A stretch of DNA of 64,000 bases from an uncultured delta proteobacterium (lineage in GTDB: Bacteria > Myxococcota > UBA727 > VGSZ01), in NCBI GenBank assembly GCA_963775425.1, contig CAVZJB010000009.1, positions 1-64,000 of the forward strand, in the 5' to 3' direction. The position numbers and the translations under genes were made by a program. Positions 11,232 through 24,017 of the stretch are shown one piece after another. A model generated the notes under the pieces. That model made no database searches. It saw only the letters and a list, made by a program, of their open reading frames with translations, and had not been told where the DNA came from. Every line of letters begins with the position of its first letter. Position 1 is the first letter of the stretch.

Positions 11232-12239
11232 ATGAAACCAGAGGCGCACCCTGGCCAGGCTCCTCGCGCGCGGCGGCGACGCTGGGCAGAGAAGGTCGTC
11301 GAGCTCATCAGCGCGAAACGTGATCAAGAGTCTCTGCGGATGGCAGCGTTGGAGATCGGCGACGCCGCACGGACTGAGGCTGATCCCGATGTGTTGCGCA
11401 GCCTTGAGAGCGAGCTCGCACGCCTCCCGTTCGAGTCCGATGTCCTGCGAGCCTATGCGCTCGCGCTGACGGACATGATCTCGGCGCTTGTGCGGCGTCT
11501 TGAGGGGGAGCTTGTTGACGAGCGCTCGTCGCAGCTCGCTATCCGTCGCGCGGAGTACTTGGAAGTGTTGCGCGAGGGGTCGCGCACACCTTCTCAGATC
11601 GCGACAGCCGTCAGCAAGGATCTCGGTCAAGTGTCGCGTGAGCTGGAGGGCTTGCGGCAAGCGGGCCTCGTGGAACTCTTCGCCGTCGACGACAAGCGAG
11701 AGCGGCCTCATCGGTTGACCCTTCGGGGCCGGCGCGCGTTGCCAGAAGCTCCGCCAACGAAGCGGGAATGGGAGATCGAGCACAGTGTTCCTGAGGCGAG
11801 CGCGGCCGTCTTCAGGCGGACGCTCTTCATTCACGCAACCGTGCGTGTCGACGTGACCATCGCGGAGCTGTTCACTGACTTGTGGCGCGAGAGCGAGGCG
11901 CCGCGTTTTCTCCTCGATCTCAAGATGCGCGCACCTCCCGATGAGACGTCGATCGTGATTCGATCCAATGCGACGCATGCGTGGCAGCAGCTGTTCTTTG
12001 CCTCGTCGTTCATGAAACGACGCTGGCGGGAGTGCTCGCTCATGCCAGACGCGATGGCGAACGACCACTTCGCGCAGGTGCCCGACGAGCGCTACGTCGT
12101 GATCTACGACGATCCGCGGCAAGAGCAGCTCGATCGCGCCAACGCTTTTGGCCGAAAGCTCCTGGGCAACGCGGACGGTCGCTTCTTGGTGAAGCCCGTT
12201 GGTGCCGAGCGAACTTTGGCGCTGGAGGCTCTGCCATGA
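11232..12239 (+). CDS. MarR/ArsR-type winged-helix protein with unassigned flanking domains
   Basis: TPSQIATAVSKDLGQVSRELEGLRQAGLV...RLTLRG wHTH. Confidence 0.78.
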   Translation: MKPEAHPGQAPRARRRRWAEKVVELISAKRDQESLRMAALEIGDAARTEADPDVLRSLESELARLPFESDVLRAYALALTDMISALVRRLEGELVDERSSQLAIRRAEYLEVLREGSRTPSQIATAVSKDLGQVSRELEGLRQAGLVELFAVDDKRERPHRLTLRGRRALPEAPPTKREWEIEHSVPEASAAVFRRTLFIHATVRVDVTIAELFTDLWRESEAPRFLLDLKMRAPPDETSIVIRSNATHAWQQLFFASSFMKRRWRECSLMPDAMANDHFAQVPDERYVVIYDDPRQEQLDRANAFGRKLLGNADGRFLVKPVGAERTLALEALP

Positions 12240-12883
12240 GCGCCCGCCGCGTGCTTGATCCCGACGTCATGCAGAAGCTGGTGACTGCCCGCGACGGCTT
12301 TCAGCAGCACGCCGATGCGTTGCGGCGGCTCTTGAGTCGCACCGGCTCGGTGCTCGATCATCACTTCGAGCTTCAGAGCGGCGCGCATGCGCAGTACTTC
12401 CTTCGCTTCGCGGATGCGGTGCGACGTCCCGAGGACGCATCAACTGTGGCGAAGGTCTTCTCCGGCTTGCTGCCGAAGGACTCTGTGCTGCTTTGCCCGG
12501 AGAGCTCCGGCGTCGCCCTCGCCGCCGCACTGCGAGATGAGCTCGGTGTCTCGCTTGCCGTCGTAGGGGTCGACCAACACCGCCGTCCGCTGAAGGAACT
12601 CCGAAGCGGAGATGTGAAGGGGCGTAAGACCTATGTCGTCAACGATGTCGTGACGACCGGATCCTCGCTCGAACAGCTTGCGATCGTCGCGCGCGAGCAT
12701 GGTGGCGAGCTCGCGGGAGCCATTGCATTCGCGGTACATGAGAAGGCGTCGCTTGAGACGCGTCCCGGGTTGGCTGGCCTCTCTATCCACATCCCGCTGA
12801 CCTTCCTGTGGAAGACCTATTCGGCACCTTGCCCGCTTTGCTCAACCGTCGGCCCAGCGATCCCCGCGTTGGAGCTCAACTGA
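12236..12883 (+). CDS. Type I phosphoribosyltransferase (PyrE-like)
   Basis: HFELQSG, PRPP loop VVNDVVTTGSS, C-terminal CPLC; ATGA overlap with the wHTH gene. Confidence 0.85.
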   Translation: MSARRVLDPDVMQKLVTARDGFQQHADALRRLLSRTGSVLDHHFELQSGAHAQYFLRFADAVRRPEDASTVAKVFSGLLPKDSVLLCPESSGVALAAALRDELGVSLAVVGVDQHRRPLKELRSGDVKGRKTYVVNDVVTTGSSLEQLAIVAREHGGELAGAIAFAVHEKASLETRPGLAGLSIHIPLTFLWKTYSAPCPLCSTVGPAIPALELN

Positions 12884-13068
12884 TGCGCCTGATGTCAAGG
12901 CCTCGCGTTTGCGACGGGCGCGGGTCCACGGATCTGCGGATCCGCGCGGGATCTAGCGTCCGCAGCGCTCTCGCCTTGCGTCGGCCGTTGTCGACGTCGA
13001 TCTAGTTTTGTTTCGCGGAGCGAAATCAAAAAAGATCCAACTCGATTAACGGTTGCCGTGTACCAAAC

Positions 13069-13097
13069 TTGCCGTGTGGTTGCGCGGTGGTTACGCT
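13069..13097 (+). promoter_or_regulatory. Sigma70-like promoter
   Basis: TTGCCG-17 nt-TACGCT; TTGCCGTGT direct repeat at 13053 and 13069; AAGGAGG RBS at 13131. Confidence 0.45.
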
Positions 13098-13141
13098 ATC
13101 CCTAGGCCGCGCCCCCTTCAGGTTCGGCTCAAGGAGGCGTC

Positions 13142-13438
13142 ATGAGCGTTCAGTCCATCAGTTACGACTTGCGCAAGCCCGGCCAGAACTATGCCGGGCT
13201 CATCCAGCAGTTGAAGTCGATCGGCGACTGGTGTCGCCCTACCGAGTCGCAGTGGCTCGTCGACACGTCGATGACGGCAGCGCAGTTGCGTGACCGACTG
13301 CTCCCCTTCATCGACGCGAACGACAAGCTGCTCGTCGCCGAGGTCACGGGCGTGATGGCGTGGCACGGCTTGGCGCCCGAGGTGGCGGAGTGGATCCGCA
13401 CCCACTTCCGCGGCGGTGCAGTCGGCCGGCGCTACTGA
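13142..13438 (+). CDS. Small Cas2/VapD-like ferredoxin-fold protein
   Basis: ISYDL...QNY...ESQWLV...DKLLV signature; strong RBS. Confidence 0.75.
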   Translation: MSVQSISYDLRKPGQNYAGLIQQLKSIGDWCRPTESQWLVDTSMTAAQLRDRLLPFIDANDKLLVAEVTGVMAWHGLAPEVAEWIRTHFRGGAVGRRY

Positions 13439-13446
13439 GGCACGTC

Positions 13447-13866
13447 ATGGCGTACAACGACGACGACCTCCGGCTCATCCACCAGAAGACCGACGGCCGC
13501 TGCCATCTGTGCAGGCGAGCGGTCCGCTACTCGCTCTACGGCGCGTACGAAGAGCCCGCGGGTTGGGCGGTCGACCACAGCAACCCGCGCGCGCGGGGCG
13601 GCACCGACCGCAAGAGCAACCTGTTGCCAGCGTGCTGTTCGTGCAATCGGACGAAGCGCGCTTCGTCGACGCGGAGCGCACGCAAGCGCAACGGGTTCAG
13701 CCGTCGCCCCAAGTCGCGCAGCGAGAAGACTGCGACGCGACAGAAGAACGCCGCGGTGGGCGGCGGCCTCGGTGCCGTCGCTGGTGGCCTGGTGTTCGGC
13801 CCCTTGGGTGTGCTTGCAGGTGCCCTCCTTGGCGGCGGCATCGGCCACGACCTTGATCCTGAGTAA
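13447..13866 (+). CDS. HNH endonuclease with C-terminal glycine-zipper/hydrophobic tail
   Basis: CHLC...VDHSNPRARGG...NLLPACCSCN; GGGLGAVAGGLVFGPLGVLAGALLGGGIG. Confidence 0.85.
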   Translation: MAYNDDDLRLIHQKTDGRCHLCRRAVRYSLYGAYEEPAGWAVDHSNPRARGGTDRKSNLLPACCSCNRTKRASSTRSARKRNGFSRRPKSRSEKTATRQKNAAVGGGLGAVAGGLVFGPLGVLAGALLGGGIGHDLDPE

Positions 13867-13880
13867 CGAAGAGGTGACCC

Positions 13881-15878
13881 ATGCCCGCGGACGGAGACAG
13901 TAGTCAGCCCAAGCTCAAAATTTCGCAGTGGTCGTTGTCGATCTGGCGGGTCGCCGCGTCGACCCTGGGGATCCCAGGCGACGCGCTTCGCACCGACGAA
14001 GAGCTCAGGGCATGGGTCTCGCGGCCGGGATTCGAGTCGCAGCCGCTCGTGAATGAGCTGCTCGAGCTCGAGGAAGAGTTTGGCATCGACGTGGGGCACG
14101 ACTTCCTCGACGAGGCCCTGCGGGAGCGCGCGGTAGATCCGGGCGCCTGGGGTCAGTTGTCCGCGCCCGACCTCGTCGCGCGCGCGTTCGTCGAGATGCA
14201 CGCCGAGGGCGCGCGCGGCGAGCAGCGTGTGCGAGACGCGTTCGTGAGCGCACGGTTTCGGACGGCGGCTGTCCACGGTCGAACGACCTTCGAGTTCGCG
14301 GGGGAAGCGGGACGTGCGTTGCCGCGTGACCTGCGCGCGTTGAAGGAGAGCTTGCGGCTGACGTTTTTCGGCGAGGGCTACGGGATGGACGTCGAGGCCG
14401 AGTACCTCGACGACGCGCTCTTCATCGGCCGCGGGGGCAAGTTGCGTGCGCCCGTGGTCGTCGAGAACGGGCAGCGCAAGGCGCTCCTGCATCGCCCGGC
14501 GGTCACCGACGTCTTGCGCTACAACTTGGTGACGGGGAAGCTGCGCATCACTGCGCGTTCGCGGCGCCTGGCTCGCATTTACGCTGACGCGCTTGGCGAG
14601 GTCTTCTTCGGGACGAAGGCACACTTCGCGGATGGTGTCGGGTTGACGCTTGAGCCGCTGAAGCGGGGACCGAGTGCGCTGGCGCCCCGGCCTGGCTCTC
14701 CGGTTGATCGGGTGACGCTGCTCAAGTTCACCGGATGCGAGGGTACCTTTCTCGGCGGCGGCGAAGCCGCGGACCTCGAGCGCTTCGTCGCGTCGTATCC
14801 GGAGATCGACCTCACCGAGGCTCGGCTCAAGATCGAGCTGAAGGACGGCACCCGCCTGATCGCGTACGTAAGGCCGCAGAAGGGTGTTGTCGTCGACAAG
14901 AAAGCGCATGAGGCGCTCGTTGAGGAGTACCTCACGCATGTCGGCGTGCGCGGCACAAAGGATGAGGCGCTGACGCTCTGGTCGGCCTTCCCGTGGGAGA
15001 TGAGGCAGGCGGACTGGCGCGATGTCTTCGGCAACGAGCTCGATGGGCTCGTCGCCGCTGGCGTGCTCGAGGGCATCAGGCTGCGCAGCGTGCAGAGCGC
15101 TGTCGGCGGGGACGAGCTCGTCGTTCATGCCGTGAGCGAAGCGGCGGGTGACTACTACGGCGTCGGACGTGAACCCGAGGACGGCGCGCGCGCGCTGACG
15201 GCGAGCGACATCGAGGGACTTCGGATGCTGCCGCGCGCGTTGGCCGAGCACATCGCCGGGCGCCTGCGCTGCGAGAAAAACATCGTTGAGCTCGATGACG
15301 GGCGGGTCTGGCGGCTTGGCCGCTGCGAGATCGGCGGCAAAGAGATCGAGCTCGTGCTCGTTGTCGCCGCGCCGTCGCGGCCGCTGCGCGAGATCACGGA
15401 GGTCGTGCTCGCCGAGACGAAGTTCATCGCGCTCGTCCCGAGCGGTGAGACTGTCGCTGGCCTGTGCACGGTGAGCGTGAAGTCGTGGTTGGACGCGAGC
15501 AGCACGAGGACGCGCCTCGCCGAGGCGCTCGGCGTAGCGGAAGCGTTGCCGCTCAACGAGCAACGGCCGGACGGAGTGGCGGTCGATCGTGCAAGCGGGT
15601 GCGTGGCGGTCTTCGGTTCGACGATCGAGCTCGGTGTGGACTCACCCCAGCTCAAGCTCATCGACGCGCTCGCAACGGCGTATCCAGCCGCAATGTCCAC
15701 GCATGAGCTGGACAAAATCGTCGGCGCTTGGGCGCGGCCCCTCGCAGCGATGAAGAGCGCGAAGTCCGATCTGAAGAAGGCGTTTGTCGCCGCCGGAGTC
15801 GACATCAACAAGGTCATGTCGAAGAAGGGCCAGGGGAACCTCCGGCTGATTGTGCCCGTGCCGGCAAAGGTTCCTTAA
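13881..15878 (+). CDS. Large hypothetical protein with C-terminal OmpR-like winged helix (putative regulator)
   Basis: 665-aa ORF with RBS. The last ~95 aa (VAVDRASGCV...QLKLIDALA...SDLKKAF...GQGNLRL) resemble a Trans_reg_C wHTH. Confidence 0.7.
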   Translation: MPADGDSSQPKLKISQWSLSIWRVAASTLGIPGDALRTDEELRAWVSRPGFESQPLVNELLELEEEFGIDVGHDFLDEALRERAVDPGAWGQLSAPDLVARAFVEMHAEGARGEQRVRDAFVSARFRTAAVHGRTTFEFAGEAGRALPRDLRALKESLRLTFFGEGYGMDVEAEYLDDALFIGRGGKLRAPVVVENGQRKALLHRPAVTDVLRYNLVTGKLRITARSRRLARIYADALGEVFFGTKAHFADGVGLTLEPLKRGPSALAPRPGSPVDRVTLLKFTGCEGTFLGGGEAADLERFVASYPEIDLTEARLKIELKDGTRLIAYVRPQKGVVVDKKAHEALVEEYLTHVGVRGTKDEALTLWSAFPWEMRQADWRDVFGNELDGLVAAGVLEGIRLRSVQSAVGGDELVVHAVSEAAGDYYGVGREPEDGARALTASDIEGLRMLPRALAEHIAGRLRCEKNIVELDDGRVWRLGRCEIGGKEIELVLVVAAPSRPLREITEVVLAETKFIALVPSGETVAGLCTVSVKSWLDASSTRTRLAEALGVAEALPLNEQRPDGVAVDRASGCVAVFGSTIELGVDSPQLKLIDALATAYPAAMSTHELDKIVGAWARPLAAMKSAKSDLKKAFVAAGVDINKVMSKKGQGNLRLIVPVPAKVP

Positions 15879-15886
15879 AGGTTCCT
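15866..15886 (+). promoter_or_regulatory. Direct repeat AAAGGTTCCT x2 (11-bp period) over the stop codon; candidate operator
   Basis: Copies at 15866-15875 and 15877-15886. Confidence 0.5.
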
Positions 15887-16030
15887 GTCCGAGCTCTTCG
15901 CGCGCCGCAGCAACCGACCTTTCTCCGACCCATCGACCTCCTCGCGGACGGCAATCTTTCTCGTGACGGCAGCGTGGTGCTGACGTCAACACGGACGGCA
16001 GCAAGGGCTGACGTCGAAACGAGAAAGAAA

Positions 16031-16666
16031 ATGACTGCGCTCGATAACAAGGACAACAAAGACGGCAACGACGAGCACAAGGACCGCTTGGTCCACGTGT
16101 TCATCAACCGCAAGCGCTTCGACGACCTGAAGCCGGTGCAGACCGGCAAGGCGTTGAAGGAACTCGCGGGCATCCCGCTGACGGACGTGCTCTTCCTCCG
16201 GCAGCCGGGGAAGGACGTGGTCGTCGGCAACGATGAGAAGGTGACGCTGAAGAACGGCGATCACCTCTACAGCCAACCGCCTGCGGACTACGGCAACGTG
16301 TCCCCGCAGGCCGCGAGCGTGCTCGACGGCCTCGAGGGGTTCACGCTGCAGCGGCAGCCGGATGGGTGGACGTTCGCGATCCACGACGCGTATGAGCTGC
16401 CGGACGCCTACGTGCCGCGTGTGGTGCGGTTGCTCGTCAAGTTGCCGCCGACGTTCCCGGATGCGGCGCCGGACATGTTCTTCGTCACGCCGATCTTGCG
16501 CGTGACGAACGGCGCGCCGCCCCGGGGCACGTCGACGACGACCATTCTCGGTCAAGGGTGGCAGCAGTTCAGCTGGCACCTGAAGCCGGGAGCGTGGATG
16601 CCGGGGGTGAGCACGTTCCGCGACTTCATGCGGTGTGTGCGGAGCCGCCTCGAGAAGCGCGACTAG
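16031..16666 (+). CDS. Ubiquitin-like (multi-ubiquitin type) domain fused to a prokaryotic E2 (family E type)
   Basis: Ubl VFINRK...TGKALKELAGI...HLYSQPPADYG, then E2 LPPTFPDAAPDMF...WQQFSWH...W.PG. Confidence 0.85.
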   Translation: MTALDNKDNKDGNDEHKDRLVHVFINRKRFDDLKPVQTGKALKELAGIPLTDVLFLRQPGKDVVVGNDEKVTLKNGDHLYSQPPADYGNVSPQAASVLDGLEGFTLQRQPDGWTFAIHDAYELPDAYVPRVVRLLVKLPPTFPDAAPDMFFVTPILRVTNGAPPRGTSTTTILGQGWQQFSWHLKPGAWMPGVSTFRDFMRCVRSRLEKRD

Positions 16667-16698
16667 GCCGACGAACAACAACAAAGAAGGAGGTGTGT

Positions 16699-18000
16699 AT
16701 GCGACTCAAGGTGAGCGAAGCGGCGTGGAACGCGTTCAGTGATCACCTGCTCGAGCGGACCGACGTCGAGAGCGCGGGCATTGTGCTCGCCCGCGCTCTC
16801 GACGCGGCCGACGGGCCTCTGCTGGTCGCGGACGAGCTGCTCGTCGTCCCCGACGATGGGTATCTCATCCGGCGGTTCGATCAGATTCGGATCGACCCGA
16901 TCGCGATGAACGGGATGACGCAGCGGGCGCGTGACGAGGGCTTGTCGATCTTTACGGTTCACACGCATCCGATGGCCAACGAGGCTTGGTTCTCGTGGGC
17001 CGACGACAACGGCGACAAGCGCTTGATGCCGAGCCTGCACGCGCAGGCGCCAGGTCCGCACGGCTCGATCGTGATCGTGCCCGGCGGCGGCGTGTTGGCG
17101 CGTGCGTTCAACGAGGAGGGGGTGGCGACGTCGGTCGACTTCGACGTCGTCGGGCGCCGTCTGGTTCGTCACCGGCAAGCGCGCGAGCGCGTCGAGGACG
17201 AGCGCTTCGCGCGGCAGGAGCTGGCGCTTGGGCCCGCGGGGCAAACGCGCCTGCGCAGTTTGCGGGTCGGTGTGATTGGGCTGGGCGGCGTCGGCTCGAT
17301 CGTCGCTGCACAGCTCGTGCACCTCGGCGTCGGCGAGCTCGTCTACGTCGACGGCGATGTGGTGTCCGAGTCGAACCTGTCGCGCGTATATGGCGCGCGG
17401 AGGGGCGACGTCGGCGCGAAGAAGGTGGTGGTGGCGGCGCGTTACGCGACGGAGAGCGGGCTACCGGTGGAGGTCGTGACGGTTGACGACCCGCTCGGCT
17501 CGCAGCACGCGGCGTTGCTGCGCTCGTGCGACGTGGTGTTCTCGTGCGTGGACACGCACACGCCGCGGTCGTTGTTGAACGCGCTCGCGTACGAGGCGTT
17601 GGTGCCCGTGATCGATATGGGGACCGCGTTTCGCATCGATGGTGCGAGCGGCGTTATCACGAGCAGCGGCGGTCGCGTCGTGGTGGTGGGGCCGGGTCGC
17701 CCGTGCCTGGGTTGTTGGGGTCACCTGAACGCCGACCGGCTCCGCGAGGAGGCGCTGTCGAGCGCCGAGCGCGCGGAGCTCGGGCGGCAGGGCTACCTCA
17801 GCGGCGCGGACGTGGCGCAGCCGAGCGTCGTGGCATTCAACACGTACGTTGCCGGGGCGGCGGTGATCGAGCTGTTGCGGTTGGTGACCGGGTTCGCCGG
17901 CGCCGACGACCCGCCGAACCGCCTCGGGTTCATGTTTGAGGACGGCAGCGTGACGCGCAACGAGGTGAACGCGCGGGCGTCGTGTCGATGCACGCGATGA
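16699..18000 (+). CDS. JAB/JAMM peptidase fused to ThiF/E1 adenylating domain
   Basis: VESAG...HTHP...FSWAD (E/HxH/S/D); GLGGVGS, DGDVVSESNLSR, CVD, PCLGC; AGGAGG RBS. Confidence 0.9.
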   Translation: MRLKVSEAAWNAFSDHLLERTDVESAGIVLARALDAADGPLLVADELLVVPDDGYLIRRFDQIRIDPIAMNGMTQRARDEGLSIFTVHTHPMANEAWFSWADDNGDKRLMPSLHAQAPGPHGSIVIVPGGGVLARAFNEEGVATSVDFDVVGRRLVRHRQARERVEDERFARQELALGPAGQTRLRSLRVGVIGLGGVGSIVAAQLVHLGVGELVYVDGDVVSESNLSRVYGARRGDVGAKKVVVAARYATESGLPVEVVTVDDPLGSQHAALLRSCDVVFSCVDTHTPRSLLNALAYEALVPVIDMGTAFRIDGASGVITSSGGRVVVVGPGRPCLGCWGHLNADRLREEALSSAERAELGRQGYLSGADVAQPSVVAFNTYVAGAAVIELLRLVTGFAGADDPPNRLGFMFEDGSVTRNEVNARASCRCTR

Positions 18001-18003
18001 CGG

Positions 18004-19122
18004 TCAGCCCTTGGCGTTCTTGCCGAGCTTCACCATGAGCTCGGCACCGAAGCCGGGGCTGACCATCTTTTCTCTGCGCAGGCGACCGACAACGACGCAA
18101 GGATCGACGCCGACGCTGCGCGCGAAGCGAACGACGTCGTCGATCGTCGGAGCCGTGCGTGCGAGAAACATGCGGAGCGCCTTCGGGTCGATCAGCGTGT
18201 CCGTGGCATAGCGGTCGGCTTCGGCTTCTTCGACAGCGACGTCCGGAGCAATATCTTGATCTTCGTCTTCGATGAAGATCGCGCGCTTCGCATGAAAGAG
18301 GATGTGAGCAGCTTCATGGAAGAAGTTGAACCAGAAGATGTCGAGACGGTCCCACAGGAATGTGTTTTGGATGAGCGCCTTGTCCTGTGAGAGCCAACGG
18401 GCCGCAGCCTTGATGCCCGCACCTGGGAATTCCTCGACCATCACGACGACGACGCCGGCCTCGGCGCAGAGACGCTGGATCTCCGGCATGATGTCGGCGA
18501 GCTTCTTCTTCGTGAGCAACGTCTCGCGGATGGTCTTCACTGCGGCGACAAAGCGGTCGCGGTCGTATGGAGCTGGCGCCACTTTCTGCGCCTCAAGCTC
18601 ACCGCTGCGTAGCCACGCGGCGATTTTCCCGTGCTTCTCAGAGACGCTTGGCGTGCGGCGCCACTTCGACTGGTGGTCGATGTACAGCGCCTTCCAATTC
18701 TCGGGGGTCGCCATCCCGAAGAACGACAAGACCTCACGAGCGCGTTCGGCGCGTGTGTGCGTGGGCCTCAGCCACTTTCGCTTGACCATCTCGTTGAGCG
18801 GCAAGCTCCACTTGGCGATTTCGGCGTCGTAGTCGAGGAGGCGCTTGTCTTCCTCTTGGCGCGCAAGCGACTCGCGGTAATTCTGTTCGCGGCTGAGCCA
18901 GAAGCCCGCAGAGGGCTCGCCGAGCACGCGTTCGAGCTCGAGCGCGGTGTCCGGCGTGATCGCTGTCTTGCCCTTGACGATCTCGTTGATGGTTTTCTTG
19001 GGCCGACCCATGCGCTGGGCGAGTTCCGACTGCGTCATGCCGCGTTGATCGAGCAACTCGACGAGCGTCTCGCCGGGGAGCGACACGACGGGCGGCTGGT
19101 ATTTGTTCTTCGTCTCAGTCAT
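18004..19122 (-). CDS. higA: HigA-type XRE antitoxin fused to an ImmA/IrrE Zn metallopeptidase
   Basis: PGETL...MTQSELAQRMGRPKKTINEIVKGK HTH; FWFNFFHEAAH...EAEAD. Confidence 0.88.
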   Translation of the reverse strand: MTETKNKYQPPVVSLPGETLVELLDQRGMTQSELAQRMGRPKKTINEIVKGKTAITPDTALELERVLGEPSAGFWLSREQNYRESLARQEEDKRLLDYDAEIAKWSLPLNEMVKRKWLRPTHTRAERAREVLSFFGMATPENWKALYIDHQSKWRRTPSVSEKHGKIAAWLRSGELEAQKVAPAPYDRDRFVAAVKTIRETLLTKKKLADIMPEIQRLCAEAGVVVVMVEEFPGAGIKAAARWLSQDKALIQNTFLWDRLDIFWFNFFHEAAHILFHAKRAIFIEDEDQDIAPDVAVEEAEADRYATDTLIDPKALRMFLARTAPTIDDVVRFARSVGVDPCVVVGRLRREKMVSPGFGAELMVKLGKNAKG

Positions 19123-19450
19123 CTGCGGTCCCGATTCCAAGCACGCGAACGGTGGTCACCTGGGTCCAGTCGGCGTTGCCGTGAGTCGCGGCCCGGTCGT
19201 CGACGGGCTCGAGGATGAGGCCGTGCGGTGGCTGAACAGCGATGTGGAGACGACCGAGCTTCTCAGCATCACCGGTCAGCGCGCCCGGAATGCCCCGAAC
19301 GTCGCGCAGCGTCGGCGCGGCGCGTAGGTCGTCGAGCCGCCTGCGGATGCATCGGGCCATGTCTTGGCCCCACTTCTTCTTGAGTGCCACGTCGTCGTGG
19401 AAGAGCTGCTCGACTTTGTCCGTCTTGAAGGTGATATCCACGGACATCAT
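19115..19450 (-). CDS. higB: HigB/RelE-family toxin
   Basis: DITFKTDKVEQL...KKWG...IRRRLDDLRAA; lies upstream of and overlaps higA. Confidence 0.78.
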   Translation of the reverse strand: MMSVDITFKTDKVEQLFHDDVALKKKWGQDMARCIRRRLDDLRAAPTLRDVRGIPGALTGDAEKLGRLHIAVQPPHGLILEPVDDRAATHGNADWTQVTTVRVLGIGTADD

Positions 19451-19464
19451 CCGTGTCCACTCTG

Positions 19465-19483
19465 GTTCACGGAAAAGGTGAAC
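19465..19483. promoter_or_regulatory. Palindrome GTTCAC-N7-GTGAAC; candidate HigA operator
   Basis: Directly upstream of higB. Confidence 0.5.
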
Positions 19484-19567
19484 AAGAGGATCGGCTGACG
19501 GCATGGTGGCATAGGGTGACTGATAGCGCACCCATGACCACGCGTCCAATCGCCTGCTGAAGAGCGA

Positions 19568-21484
19568 CTAGACCGCCTCCTCGAAGTGCAACTGCACGTC
19601 GCGATCGAGCCGCGAGCAGTGACGGAGGATCTGCAGCGAGTGCTTCAGCAACTCCGTGTCGCGAGCGACCTCGCTGATCGGTCCGTCCGCAAACTTGCCG
19701 CCGTGGAAGAGGTTGTTCCGCACGCGCCGCACCGCGAGCAGCACGGATACCGAGTCGCCGTCGATACCTCCATCCTTCCACCCGAGCGTGCCGTCGTCCT
19801 TTCTGATTTGCTTCTTCGGCGGGTGATCTCGGAGGTACCGCGCCGCTTCGCCAACGCGCGGGTCGACCGCCGTCGCCGTCGCAAAGTCGGCCTTGATCGC
19901 CTTCGCGAACGCATCCCAATTCGGAGACGCATCGGCAGTATCGTTCAGGTACGTCGCGCTCCTCTTCAGCGCGTACTCGAAGCGTGCAAACGTCGCGAGA
20001 AACTCCAGGACCAGCGCCGGCTCAGCGGTGAAGACGGAGACCACACTCGAAGCCATCGCAGTTCCTGCGACAGCTGCCCCGGTCGTCGGCACCGCGGGAG
20101 GCGCGACCGAGACCGTCGCCGTCACCGCGCCTTCAGTCCGCGTTGTGGCGTTGCCTGTCCCTTCGGCGGTGGTGTTCGGCTGCAGGCGTACGCGCGCGTC
20201 AATCCCGGGCGACGCCGCGTCGGCGGCGAACGGAGCGCCGTCCTCATCGCAGAGCGCGTAGCCCGCGGCATCGATGAGCAACCGCAGCTCGTGGAACCGG
20301 TCCGTCCTCAGCCGGCTGAACTCGCCGAGACCGGCCTTCTTGAGCAACGAACGAATCTCGATCGAGCGCCGGCCGGTGTACTGCGCGAGCTTGTCTTTGA
20401 GGACCGCGACGGGGTCATCCGCCGGATCGGCGGCAGCGGCTTCTTCGCCGCCTCCGTCAGCCGCGCATGCCGTCAGCATGCTCGTGTCCATTCGGCACCA
20501 CGCCGCCGTCGCCGTCGCGCGGAGCTCGTCCGACGACTTCGCCTTCGCGTCCGGCAATCGCCACCAGCCATCGCCGATCGGGAAACCCTCGGTCGAGCCC
20601 AACACATGCGTGAGGTCAGCTTGTCGCAGGTCAGCGATGAGAGCGGCACTGTCGCCGCGGTACGCGTCCGCGAGCTGCTCCTCCATTGCCGCCTTGCTCT
20701 TACGCCGCGCGAGACCACGCGCGTCGCAGAGGGCGACGAGTGAGTCGCGCCCTCCGTCGATCCCAATCCATTCGAGCAAGTCCGAGACGAGCGGCGCATC
20801 GTTGGGCAGACCATGCCGACGTTTCGCTGGGTAGCGAGACACGTCCCCGTTCTCGTCGACGAAGTACAGGTAGCCGGCCTCGCGCCTCGCGCCGGCGTCC
20901 GCGACGAACTCAGCCGGTGCGTCGGCATCGTCGACGGGCGCACGCATGACCTTCCCGTCGTCGAAGTAGTAGATGAACCCATCTTCGCGCTTCACGCCAA
21001 GTGCGCTGACGACCTCAAGCTTTTCGTGATCAACATCCCAGTCTTGAAAGTCGAGGTCGTCGCCCGCTCCTCCGTTGTCGACCAGCTCCGTTGCCTCGTC
21101 GGCTGGGTCATCCGCGAAGTCCTCATCGACCGCGCCACCGAGTGCATCGACCCAAGCCGCAAGACGCTGGCGCGTGGAGAGACCGGCCGCCTCCAACAGA
21201 GCTCTTCGCTCCGTGTCCTCGAGCGCCACTGCGACTGTGTTTAGCTTCCGGCGAAAGCTCTCGGCGAACTTTCCGCGCGCTGCCTCTTCGCCGTCCGGCA
21301 GCGCAACCTCGCCAAGCACCGCAACAAGCCGCCGGAGGGAGCTCACCGGAAGAACGCGCGCGATCTCGTCGATAGGAACCACACGATCGAACAGGTTCTC
21401 GACGTCAAACGGGCGTTCGTCACGACGGTGCTCTTGGCCAACCGCGCCCGGCGCCGGCGGCCACGGGATCTCGAAGAGCCCAAG
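19568..21484 (-). pseudogene. 3' part of an IS66-interrupted ASCH/Cc1-like/HEPN gene
   Basis: Open frame from LGLFEIPW to the stop at 19568; tandem KREDGFIYYFD / RREAGYLYFVDENGDVSR; C-terminal RVRNNLFHGGK. Confidence 0.8.
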
Positions 21485-21553
21485 GTATCCGGCCGGCGAA
21501 CTGCGTCGTGACACCGGGCCTCGCCGCGCGTACCGCGCGCGCGGAGGTGATGC

Positions 21554-21880
21554 ATGGCCAGGGAGTCGAGGGTGGTGTGGGCGCGGCGGGTGGCGCGGTG
21601 GGCGAAGAGCGGCCTGTCGCGCGAGGAGTTCGCGGCGCGTGAGGGCGTGAAGGCGACGACGCTGTCGTGGTGGCGCTGGTACCTGGGCCGCGACGGTGCG
21701 GCGCCAGCGCGGATGCTCGCGCGGCCCGAGCCAGCCTTCGTCGAGGTCGAGCCGGTCGTGGTCGAGGCCGTGAGCGAGCGCATCGAAGTGGCGCTCACCA
21801 ACGGCCGCGTGGTGCGCGTACCGATGACGTTCCGCGACGACGCTCTCGTGCGCGTGCTTGCCGCCGCGGAGTCCCGATGA
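21554..21880 (+). CDS. tnpA: IS66 TnpA
   Basis: Homologous to 5217-5540. Confidence 0.88.
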   Translation: MARESRVVWARRVARWAKSGLSREEFAAREGVKATTLSWWRWYLGRDGAAPARMLARPEPAFVEVEPVVVEAVSERIEVALTNGRVVRVPMTFRDDALVRVLAAAESR

Positions 21881-22269
21881 TCCCGGCCGGCCTGCGCATC
21901 GTCGTCGCGCTCGCGCCGATGGACATGCGGCGCTCGATAGACGGCCTTGTCGCCGCCGTCGCCGACCGGCTCCACCAGGACGCCGCAGTCGCGCGCGTGG
22001 TCTACGCCTTCGCCAACACGCGCAGGGATCGCGCAAAGCTGATCTGGCGCACCGAGCATCAATGGTGCCTGCTGTACACGCGGCTCGACGCCGGCTACCG
22101 CGTGACGCTGCCCGTCGCGCAGGATGGCGTGGCGAGCGTATCGGTCGATGCTCGCCAACTGGCGGCGATCCTCGACGGCGCGAAGAAGCGCGCGACGACG
22201 CGCGAGACCGTTCGCGAGGCGCGCGCGAAGGTGTCGATTTCTTCGCCAAGCTCGTCGACGAGGCGATAG
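21877..22269 (+). CDS. tnpB: IS66 TnpB
   Basis: PMDMRRSIDGL; homologous to 5537-5929. Confidence 0.88.
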   Translation: MIPAGLRIVVALAPMDMRRSIDGLVAAVADRLHQDAAVARVVYAFANTRRDRAKLIWRTEHQWCLLYTRLDAGYRVTLPVAQDGVASVSVDARQLAAILDGAKKRATTRETVREARAKVSISSPSSSTRR

Positions 22270-22277
22270 ATCATGGC

Positions 22278-24017
22278 GTGAACGAGGAGCTCACCGACGT
22301 CAACGTGCTGCGCGCGCGCCACCTCGAGACGGTGGCGATGCTCGAAGCGCTGAAGAAGGCGTACGACAAGCTCCTCTTCGAGCACGAGCTGCTGAAGCGG
22401 CAAGTGCTCGGTCCCAAGGCCGAGCGCGTCAAGAACGCGCAGGCGCAGGCTGAGCTGCCGCTCTTGGAGTTCGTCGCGGCGATCGGCAGGCTTCAGGCCG
22501 GTGACGAGAGCGCTCTCGACGACGCCCAGAGGGCCCTCGACGAGGCGACAGCGGCGCTCGGGGGCGGCGGCGACGACGCGCTAGAGAAGCCGTCGAGGCC
22601 TGGCGGCCATGGTCGCCGCAAGCTCCAGCTCGAGGATCTGCCGCTTCACCGCATCGTGCTGTTGCCGCCCGAGCGACTCGCTCCTGGCGGCGAGAAGCTG
22701 GTGAAGATTGGCGAGGAGGTGACGCAGCTTGTCGAGCGGCAGCCGGCCTCGATCGTGCGCATCGAGGTCGTGCGCGAGAAGTTCGCAGCGCCAGCGGACG
22801 CGGAGGCTACGTCTCCGCCGGCGAGCGCGCCGCCCGTAGCGCCGGAGAGCTCGACGATCGCCGGCGCGCCCCCGCTCGGGCGCGCGCCGCGCGCCGTCTT
22901 CATCGCCGACATGCCGGAGCGCGTGATCCCGAAGGCGATGGTCGAGCCGGGGTTCCTCGCGCACGTGTTGGTGTCGAAGCACTGCGACCACATCCCGCTG
23001 AACCGCCAGGAGGGCATCTTCAAGCGGGAGGGGTTCAAGGTGTCGAGCTCGACTCTCGGCGATTGGGTGGAGGCGTCGACGAACCTGCTTGCCCATGTCG
23101 TCGACGCGATGTGGAAGGACGCGAAGGAGAATGCGTCGTACTGCATCGTCGACGCGACCGGCGTCTTGGTGCAGGCGAAGGGCGAGTGCCAGCGCGCGCA
23201 CTTCTACGTCGCTGTCGTACCGCAAGAGCACGTGCTGTTCCGCTTCACTCGGAAGAACGACGGGCCGACCGTCGCGGCGCTGTTCGAAGGCTTCAAGGGC
23301 CACGTCCACGCCGACGCGGCGACCGTCTACCACGAGCTCTACCGGCGCGAGCTTCAGCACCTCACCGAAGTCGGATGTTGGGCCCACACGCGGCGGAAGT
23401 TCTTCGATGCGCTGTCGCGCGATCGGGAGCGCGCGCTCGTCGGCATCGGGTACATCAGCCACCTCTATGACGCCCACCGCGCAACGCTCGACAGCGACGG
23501 GGTCGCCGACACGAAGAGGCGCGCCGAGCTCGCTCGCCCCATCCTCGCGAAGCTCTTGTGGTGGGCGCGCCGCGAATTCCGCGCGGTCGCGCAAGGCACG
23601 CCGATCCATCTCGCCCTCGGCTACCTTGTCCGCCAAAGGCGCGCGTTGCTTCGCTTCCTCGACGACGGGCGCATACGCCTCGACACGAACCCCGCCGAGC
23701 TTGCGCTACGGCGCGAAGCCGTGGGACGGAAAAACTGGATCTTCGTCGGCAGCGACAACGGCGCGAAGTGGAACACGATCGCCGTGTCGCTCATCGCGAG
23801 CTGTCAGATGCATGGCATCGAGCCGTGGGCGTACCTGCGCGATGTCCTCACGCTGCTGCCCTCGTGGCCCCACCAGCGTGTGCTTGAGCTCGCACCGAAG
23901 AGCTGGCGGACGACGCTCGCGACGTCCGAGGTGCAGGAACGGCTCGCCACGCTCCGGCTGATCGACCGCGCCACGCCAGTGCGGCCGACTGACGCCATCG
24001 CCGCCGTCGACCTATAG
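22278..24017 (+). CDS. tnpC: IS66 transposase TnpC
   Basis: GCWAHTRRKF, GRKNWIFVGS; homologous to 5938-7674. Start approximate. Confidence 0.93.
   Translation: MNEELTDVNVLRARHLETVAMLEALKKAYDKLLFEHELLKRQVLGPKAERVKNAQAQAELPLLEFVAAIGRLQAGDESALDDAQRALDEATAALGGGGDDALEKPSRPGGHGRRKLQLEDLPLHRIVLLPPERLAPGGEKLVKIGEEVTQLVERQPASIVRIEVVREKFAAPADAEATSPPASAPPVAPESSTIAGAPPLGRAPRAVFIADMPERVIPKAMVEPGFLAHVLVSKHCDHIPLNRQEGIFKREGFKVSSSTLGDWVEASTNLLAHVVDAMWKDAKENASYCIVDATGVLVQAKGECQRAHFYVAVVPQEHVLFRFTRKNDGPTVAALFEGFKGHVHADAATVYHELYRRELQHLTEVGCWAHTRRKFFDALSRDRERALVGIGYISHLYDAHRATLDSDGVADTKRRAELARPILAKLLWWARREFRAVAQGTPIHLALGYLVRQRRALLRFLDDGRIRLDTNPAELALRREAVGRKNWIFVGSDNGAKWNTIAVSLIASCQMHGIEPWAYLRDVLTLLPSWPHQRVLELAPKSWRTTLATSEVQERLATLRLIDRATPVRPTDAIAAVDL

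Follow-up and report, generated by a model that had tools for sequence, protein, structure and literature searches.

Three co-directional genes at 13881-18000 of a 64,000-nucleotide stretch of DNA from an uncultured delta proteobacterium (assembly GCA_963775425.1, contig CAVZJB010000009.1; the whole stretch is referred to below as the window) very probably form one module for the conjugation of a ubiquitin-like protein (Ubl), of the cysteine-free Bub type and without the Bub component BubE. Two of the genes encode a Ubl-E2 fusion and a JAB-E1 fusion, and the third, upstream of both, encodes a protein of 665 amino acids (aa), here called X665. The original prediction for this locus described a two-gene system, in which X665 and the absence of BubE were missed; the unit that is conserved among relatives is three genes, X665, Ubl-E2 and JAB-E1. 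The window locus itself is a BubE-less Bub variant with a new partner, and no such description was found in the literature. Positions are given in window numbering, and residue numbers refer to the window proteins unless Citrobacter is named.

The reference for this comparison is the Type I Bub system of Citrobacter sp. RHBSTW-00271 described by Ye, Gong, Chambers and Corbett (PDB 9ea4, 9eae, 9eav). Type I Bub, formerly known as 6E.1 or the 'DUF6527' operons, consists of BubAB (Ubl-E2), BubCD (JAB-E1) and BubE, a serine protease (DUF6527) (bioRxiv 10.1101/2024.11.21.623953). In this system, Edman sequencing has shown that the JAB domain of BubCD cuts BubAB directly after the conserved Gly229; the crossover loop of the E1 is without Cys and holds an invariant Tyr370, and in the E2 the cysteine is replaced by Ser333, His335 and Asp299 (bioRxiv 10.1101/2024.11.21.623953). 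Conjugation is abolished by the BubCD Y370F mutation and by the BubB S333A/H335A double mutation (bioRxiv 10.1101/2024.11.21.623953).

The Ubl-E2 and JAB-E1 genes

The features of the module are as follows.

13881-15878, + strand: X665, the conserved third gene, 665 aa, upstream of the Ubl-E2 gene
16031-16666, + strand: Ubl-E2 fusion (open reading frame (ORF) A), 211 aa
16031-16294, + strand: BubA-like Ubl beta-grasp domain, residues 1-88 (Multi_ubiq), ending ...PPADYG88
16292-16297, + strand: predicted JAB processing site G88/N89 (invariant Gly; precedent of Gly229 in Citrobacter BubAB)
16295-16666, + strand: BubB-like Cys-free E2 domain, residues 89-211 (Prok-E2_E; match to BubB 9eae_C)
16699-18000, + strand: JAB-E1 fusion (ORF B), 433 aa
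16699-17148, + strand: BubC-like JAB/JAMM metallopeptidase domain, about residues 1-150 (E24, H88, H90, S99, D102)
17192-18000, + strand: BubD-like E1 adenylation domain, about residues 165-433 (R229; Y366, codon 17794-17796; C336/C339/C429/C431)

ORF A is open over its whole length, and its product runs from a short Asn/Lys/Asp-rich N-terminal tail through a beta-grasp domain into an E2-fold domain. In Pfam, Prok-E2_E matches residues 110-209 at 61.5 bits (cut-off 25), while Multi_ubiq matches residues 23-76 at 23.5 bits, 1 bit below its cut-off of 24.5. As had been predicted, the frame is unbroken from ...PPADYG88 (codon G88 at 16292-16294) into N89, with no stop between the Ubl and the E2, and both are retained in one polypeptide throughout the 35 homologues that were aligned, which answers the question of whether relatives keep the fusion. 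The alignment also agrees with an E2 that has Ser/His in WQQFSWH rather than Cys, where S181 (codon 16571-16573) and H183 (codon 16577-16579) are invariant, together with Y87, G88, D148 and W182, in 35 of 35 homologues. The sole match of the E2 part among solved structures is Citrobacter BubB (9eae_C, E 2e-5); in the alignment, SWH (S181, H183) pairs with SRH of BubB, and PD148MF with LDMF. By alignment with the published Gly229 site, the junction G88/N89 is the predicted site of JAB cleavage.

A polyubiquitin-like precursor with multiple cleavages was considered as a general trait and rejected; only two loci have two ...ADYG units, and the window has one. In these two loci (L020:7177-7992 and L030:4689-5654), the Ubl-E2 precursor holds two beta-grasp units, both with ...ADYG at the end, giving two potential JAB sites. 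Other multi-domain relatives, such as L012 with three units, carry YG on the last unit only.

ORF B, likewise an open frame, starts after a gap of 32 bases from ORF A, and 7 nt ahead of its ATG stands the ribosome-binding site AAGGAGG. Prok-JAB matches residues 7-128 at 26.9 bits (cut-off 25) and ThiF matches residues 171-413 at 128.5 bits, and with Multi_ubiq and Prok-E2_E in ORF A the Pfam families follow the predicted arrangement of four domains in two ORFs. The JAB motif E...HTH...S..D is intact, as had been noted, in the form of E24, H88-T-H90, S99 and D102. The claim that the E1 crossover loop has QGYLSG and no Cys also held, since residues 340-373, which align with the Citrobacter loop, are free of Cys and carry ...RQGY366LSG. 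Among 39 JAB-E1 homologues in the alignment, H88, H90, S99, D102, R229 and Y366 are present in all and E24 in 38. Such constancy in both proteins tells against a chance origin of the features. Among solved structures, ORF B comes closest to three Citrobacter BubCD chains (E 7e-34 to 2.5e-32, residues 11-395), of which 9ea4_A gives E 7e-34, and MoeB comes next at E 2.3e-15. In these alignments, Y366 pairs with Citrobacter Y370 and D102 with D104, where the two columns are marked by the deposited Y370F and D104A chains, and E24, H88 and H90 pair with Citrobacter E28, H91 and H93.

Cysteines do occur in the E1 domain outside the crossover loop, with C336-x-x-C339 just before it and C429-x-C431 at the C-terminus, and both are invariant in the JAB-E1 alignment. 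The match of E. coli MoeB to ORF B stops exactly at the CxxC (query 339, chain position 175), and position 175 of the MoeB chain presumably belongs to the CxxC of the structural zinc site of MoeB. The CxxC...CxC motif of the JAB-E1 protein is read as a putative zinc site and not as a hidden catalytic Cys. This motif was also considered as a mark of the BubE-less branch, which was rejected, as 4 of 5 BubE-linked JAB-E1 proteins have it as well. In two loci the module genes are split over several frames, probably in decaying copies or through assembly errors: in L040:6658-10649 the Ubl, E2 and JAB-E1 pieces lie on separate short ORFs, and in L035:8001-9408 the JAB-E1 gene is in three pieces.

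The features of Type I Bub that are found in the window are the Ubl-E2 fusion, the Gly at the junction, the Ser/His/Asp E2, the JAB-E1 fusion and the Tyr of the loop, and the feature that is lacking is BubE (PF20137) in the operon. JAB cleavage and Tyr/Ser oxyester chemistry like those of Citrobacter Type I Bub are thus well supported by homology for the window pair. The cleavage and the Tyr/Ser mechanism put forward in the original prediction are therefore upheld as to their substance; this chemistry and the fused architecture are already published for 6E.1 and are not new. To the extent of its chemistry, the locus belongs to a Bub subtype that has already been described, and it departs from that subtype in its lack of BubE.

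For the window locus, which is known here from its sequence and from models, all steps of the mechanism are taken by homology from the Type I Bub system of Ye et al. In this scheme, the JAB domain of the JAB-E1 protein would cut the Ubl-E2 precursor after G88, and the E1 domain would adenylate the C-terminus of the Ubl that is thereby freed. The Ubl would then be taken over by Tyr366 in the crossover loop of the E1, in an oxyester linkage, would pass from there to Ser181 of the E2, with the assistance of His183 and Asp148, and would end on a lysine of the target. Any deconjugation would fall to the JAB domain, in addition to processing, there being no second peptidase present. X665 would bind DNA and act as a specificity or sensor subunit, or would itself be a substrate of conjugation.

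The third protein, X665

The distribution of X665 was followed in 40 loci that were found by searching the JAB-E1 alignment against genome contigs. A homologue is present in 35 of the 40 loci by blastp and in 36 by profile, where 27 of these sequences had built the profile. In all 36, the X665 gene is on the same strand as the pair and abuts it, either before the Ubl-E2 gene (about 20 loci) or after the JAB-E1 gene (about 16 loci). Of the 4 loci without it, three (L028, L031, L033) lie on contigs that break off at the module and the fourth (L037) is a gene fragment. Among 40 relatives of the host, only 2 have X665, and the host itself has one copy. One relative, G421, holds two copies.

By the reach of its profile, X665 is a sizeable unannotated family. 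The profile of 27 members matches 1,721 representative clusters at E <= 0.001, of which 1,215 reach E <= 1e-10 and 378 reach E <= 1e-30, and most of these clusters have proteins of about 690 aa that are matched end to end. No family match was found in Pfam, which was run with the single protein and with all 27 aligned members, nor in PADLOC, NCBIfam or PHROGs, and in the protein atlas X665 matched only unnamed clusters. Scattered Pfam matches of single members (EAD2, Pyr_redox_2) were disregarded.

AlphaFold2 models of X665, which reach a predicted local distance difference test (pLDDT) score of 83.4 when built for the full length and of 82.8 when built for residues 1-555, show a helical N-terminus, an RdgC-like core, beta-rich domains and a C-terminal winged helix. 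The modelled core, at about 127-362, has its best solved match in E. coli RdgC (2owl_B), with Z 9.3, a root-mean-square deviation (rmsd) of 4.5 and 200 of 301 aa aligned; Z 7-8 is the typical background here, so that this match is middling. RdgC-like proteins of phages in BFVD match the core at Foldseek E 1.9e-4 and above. The C-terminal part, at about 560-660, resembles an OmpR/PhoB-type winged helix (7lza, Z 11.0, rmsd 2.2, 88 aa), and more than 20 chains of the OmpR family match it at Z >= 8. In Pfam, neither Trans_reg_C nor RdgC matches X665 at the sequence level, and Foldseek against the PDB with the whole X665 model gave no match at E <= 0.001. Matches to CENP-N and CENP-L (Z 7-8) were taken as the same RdgC-like arrangement and not as kinship.

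RdgC and the OmpR/PhoB winged helix are both DNA-binding folds. On the strength of the model, X665 probably binds DNA, a reading that rests mainly on the winged helix because the RdgC match is middling. The conserved polar residues of X665 are D210, R205, R213, E308 and K628, the last being nearly invariant and lying in helix 622-637, which we take to correspond to the recognition helix of OmpR-type domains. It is unlikely that X665 replaces BubE as a protease, because its alignment has no conserved column of Ser, His or Cys. A complex prediction of X665 with the Ubl-E2 protein gave a score of 0.00 in both of two runs made without controls and is uninformative either way.

Absence of BubE and the alternative explanations

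It has been stated that bubE is present in all Bub operons (bioRxiv 10.1101/2024.11.21.623953). In the window, the JAB-E1 gene runs to 18000 and is met at 18004 by the end of a convergent gene, which leaves no room for a downstream gene, while in BubE-type loci the DUF6527 gene lies directly beside BubCD. DUF6527 (PF20137) was searched for in six frames with one Pfam model at E <= 0.001. It was not found in the window's own genome (8.26 Mb in 18 contigs, 94.55% complete), nor in any of the 16 module-carrying genomes made up of this one and 15 with close homologues, among them that of L015, whose record bears the title of a complete genome; a control genome was positive each time. Of 401 genomes sampled from the phylum of G004, the same search was positive in 17. 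DUF6527 was also absent from the 129 flanking ORFs that were scanned around module loci. Conversely, among 18 DUF6527 loci taken with 6-kb flanks, 5 have a full JAB-E1 and 7 have an E1-only match as in Type II, and the X665 profile matches none of the 18.

The JAB-E1 proteins themselves point the same way. A quick maximum-likelihood tree was made from 43 sequences. In it, a branch with a support of 99 in the Shimodaira-Hasegawa-like approximate likelihood ratio test (SH-aLRT) separates 34 JAB-E1 proteins of module loci from 5 Type I proteins linked to BubE and from the E1 domains of Type II. From this quick tree, the BubE-less pairs appear to be a JAB-E1 lineage that is separate from BubE-linked Type I. 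The Methods passages of Gong et al. take the Bub catalogue from DUF6527-containing operons (Gong et al., Methods). Because the catalogue is described in these passages as drawn from such operons, the presence of BubE is to that extent a matter of definition, and the branch would be missing from the published catalogue for the same reason.

Three other explanations were weighed against that of a BubE-less Bub-type module with X665 as its third component. It is most improbable that the locus is an ordinary Type I Bub system, whose BubE is encoded elsewhere, too divergent to be found or unassembled, and in which X665 is a mere frequent neighbour. While the genome of the window is incomplete and in 18 contigs, most related genomes are metagenome-assembled genomes (MAGs), and a single Pfam model stood for BubE, the 16 genomes without PF20137 include the one titled complete, the same search finds the family in other genomes, and the loci that do have BubE carry its gene next to BubCD. 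The flanks of the three genes vary, yet 36 of 40 loci, from at least 5 phyla, have X665 next to the pair, which chance does not explain. Even less credible is the view that the pair is a sulfur carrier with its adenylyltransferase, of the ThiS-ThiF or MoaD-MoeB type, and does not take part in protein conjugation. The E1 scores against ThiF/MoeB models (all far below their cut-offs) and against MoeB structures (E 2.3e-15), and keeps the MoeB-like CxxC...CxC motif; against this, the carrier continues into an E2-fold domain and the E1 carries a JAB peptidase, Bub conjugation enzymes are the closest relatives of known structure, the pair has no rhodanese, ThiG/MoaE or other biosynthetic gene next to it, and the window's own genome has other ThiF-family matches elsewhere.

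An explanation with somewhat more in its favour, though still rather unlikely, is that X665 is only a transcriptional regulator of a two-gene Bub pair, analogous to CapW/BrxR or to CapH+CapP. Its C-terminal winged helix of the OmpR/PhoB type (Z 11.0) and the nearly invariant Lys628 in helix 622-637 would suit such a role, and many Bub operons carry dedicated regulators, with CapW linked to 8% of them and CapH+CapP to 31% (bioRxiv 10.1101/2024.11.21.623953). At about 690 aa and with at least 4 further domains, X665 is far bigger than the known operon regulators; its gene abuts the pair on the same strand in every case, before Ubl-E2 or after JAB-E1, like the gene of a subunit; it is present in 36 of 40 loci, as opposed to 8-31% for the Bub regulators; and the JAB-E1 proteins linked to X665 form their own branch.

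Several points weigh against the reading of the locus as a three-gene, BubE-less Bub module that is preferred here. Cleavage, adenylation and oxyester transfer are all carried over from a homologue whose match to the window protein has E 7e-34, and this BubCD match is far weaker than those to the close JAB-E1 homologues, which are 51-92% identical to the window protein. The Multi_ubiq score falls short of its cut-off, and the RdgC match of X665 is a middling one. A very divergent BubE would escape the search with the single PF20137 model. The tree was a quick search only and has 5 BubE-linked Type I rows, several of them on long branches, and its 34 module rows include L028, whose contig is cut at the module so that X665 could not show. 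No description of a BubE-less or 'Type III' Bub was found in the literature, where the operon lists of Table S1 were outside the scope of the search; what came up on the subject was the Bub preprints of the Corbett laboratory, the CapK/CapS paper and reviews.

Going beyond the BubE-less module, it may be proposed, tentatively and with a smaller chance of being right than wrong, that X665, Ubl-E2 and JAB-E1 make up a third type of Bub, in which tagging is coupled to the recognition of DNA and the JAB domain is both maturase and eraser. In such a system, the DNA bound by X665 would be invading or damaged, or a recombination intermediate, and X665 would recruit the Ser-E2~Ubl to DNA-bound proteins or be switched by the attachment of Ubl. 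If true, this would be a DNA-targeted ubiquitin-like modification in bacteria without a BubE-type protease. Being drawn from DUF6527-containing operons, the published Bub catalogue would in any case miss the sizeable and phylogenetically distinct set of BubE-less BubAB/BubCD pairs, which have in its stead a large unannotated partner that probably binds DNA. An obligatory partner that points at DNA would also give a testable handle on what Cys-free conjugation systems act on, and the BubE-less branch would test whether BubE is essential to the logic of the pathway.

Genomic setting and comparison with known systems

The flanks of the module vary by locus and include, among the 129 ORFs scanned, Type I restriction-modification, GmrSD, integrases, deaminases, ArdC/relaxase and a phospholipase D (PLD) nuclease. 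The module is found in Myxococcota, Acidobacteriota, Planctomycetota, Gemmatimonadota and Pseudomonadota, with a spread that does not follow taxonomy, and the pattern is that of a mobile accessory element in defence-island-like surroundings. Such surroundings suggest a possible role in conflict with phages or other mobile elements. A point against this putative role is that, as the Bub authors report, no Bub operon has yet been protective against phage in E. coli (bioRxiv 10.1101/2024.11.21.623953). In the viral contig collection, the JAB-E1 alignment gave 10 distant loci at 21-36% identity, none of them with X665, and there was no sign of a phage-borne module. A scan for promoters and terminators over 13000-19700 gave nothing over background. 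Beside the module of one acidobacteriotal locus, at L009:6902-7138 on the - strand, lies a gene for a small Ubl of a different bacterial family, Prok_Ub (PF14454, 3.6e-24).

The neighbours of the module in the window are the following.

11232-12239: ArsR-type helix-turn-helix (HTH) protein, further upstream of X665
within 11981-12883: phosphoribosyltransferase (PRTase)-like gene, further upstream; a PRTase gene also lies beside L001
within 13142-13866, + strand: 98-aa ORF without family and 139-aa HNH protein, just upstream of X665
18004-19140, - strand: HTH_3 + Peptidase_M78 protein (ImmA/IrrE-like), 378 aa, overlapping the 144-aa ORF
19115-19549, - strand: 144-aa ORF with a weak match to phrog_3066, a phage 'toxin of TA system' (toxin-antitoxin; 5.4e-4)
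19568-22249, - strand: large ORF of at least 710 aa, without a Pfam family, whose C-terminal ~150 aa match phrog_19013 (3.8e-31)

Four of these neighbours are found outside the window only in the two closest loci, L001 and L002, namely the PRTase-like gene, the 98-aa gene, the HNH/glycine-zipper gene and the convergent HigB-like/HTH-M78 pair, and they are not counted as parts of the system. L001 and L002 are two contigs of one MAG and hold two diverged copies of most of the ~8-kb neighbourhood, whose outermost genes are the 98-aa and the HigB-like gene, with JAB-E1 proteins that are 87% and 83% identical, respectively, to that of the window; both contigs have the 98-aa gene and the HNH gene. 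The 139-aa protein combines a motif of HNH nucleases (PF01844, 1.6e-8) with a glycine-zipper or 2TM-like (two-transmembrane) tail at its C-terminus. The pair at 18004-19549, which lies directly after the JAB-E1 gene in convergent orientation and is shared with L001/L002 only, looks like a HigB/HigA-peptidase toxin-antitoxin pair or a CapH-CapP-like fused regulator. Its 378-aa protein matches HigA TIGR02607 at 53.9 bits (above the cut-off) and PADLOC PD-Lambda-2_B at 2.9e-32, and has weak matches to capH/capP. ORFs from about 21554 to 24017 on the + strand are transposase-like by eye.

Among known systems, Bil (BilABCD) and CBASS Cap2/Cap3 share with the window the logic of E1, E2 and JAB, in the case of Bil also with a Ubl, and are found in defence islands. 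They differ from it in having a catalytic Cys and genes that are separate or otherwise fused, and in CBASS the CD-NTase is what is conjugated. The hallmarks of Bil, which are a separate Ubl, a Cys-E2, a JAB protein and an IAD-AAD-CYS E1, are not those of the window, where the genes are fused and the E2 has Ser; weak PADLOC matches of the window E1 to E1-E2 (1.9e-14) and BilD (2.6e-7) are confined to its Rossmann part.

Type II Bub (6E.2) is closer in that it has Cys-free Tyr/Ser chemistry and a related E1 domain. It is unlike the window in its BubBD fusion (E2-E1), separate BubA, lack of a JAB, Ser/Lys/His E2 and presence of BubE (bioRxiv 10.1101/2024.11.21.623953). Operon type 6e has been described, in the passages that bear on it, as having a polyUbl or solo Ubl, an 'inactive' E2/RWD-like protein that is sometimes fused to the Ubl, and a JAB-E1 fusion (Iyer, Burroughs, Aravind 2006, PMC1779556). 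By these passages (Genome Biol 7:R60), type 6e has the JAB-E1 fusion and at times the Ubl-E2 fusion of the window, and differs in a small metal-binding protein 'Y' (now DUF6527); a large partner with RdgC-like and winged-helix parts is not mentioned in them. As for RdgC and OmpR/PhoB proteins, the likeness to X665 is at the level of the fold and limited to its core and C-terminus, while the five-part architecture of X665 matches neither family, and no receiver domain was established.

The closest comparison is that with Citrobacter Type I Bub, which is like the window in its Ubl-E2 fusion with a Gly at the junction, in the Ser/His/Asp that stand for Cys in the E2, and in a JAB-E1 fusion with an intact JAMM motif, the adenylation Arg and an invariant Tyr in a loop free of Cys. 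It is unlike the window in that Citrobacter BubA has three beta-grasp domains as opposed to one, and in that the window protein is a distant match of BubCD (E 7e-34) with its JAB-E1 on a separate branch. Above all, the branch to which the window belongs lacks BubE in the 16 genomes searched and has in its place a conserved gene for a protein of about 690 aa.

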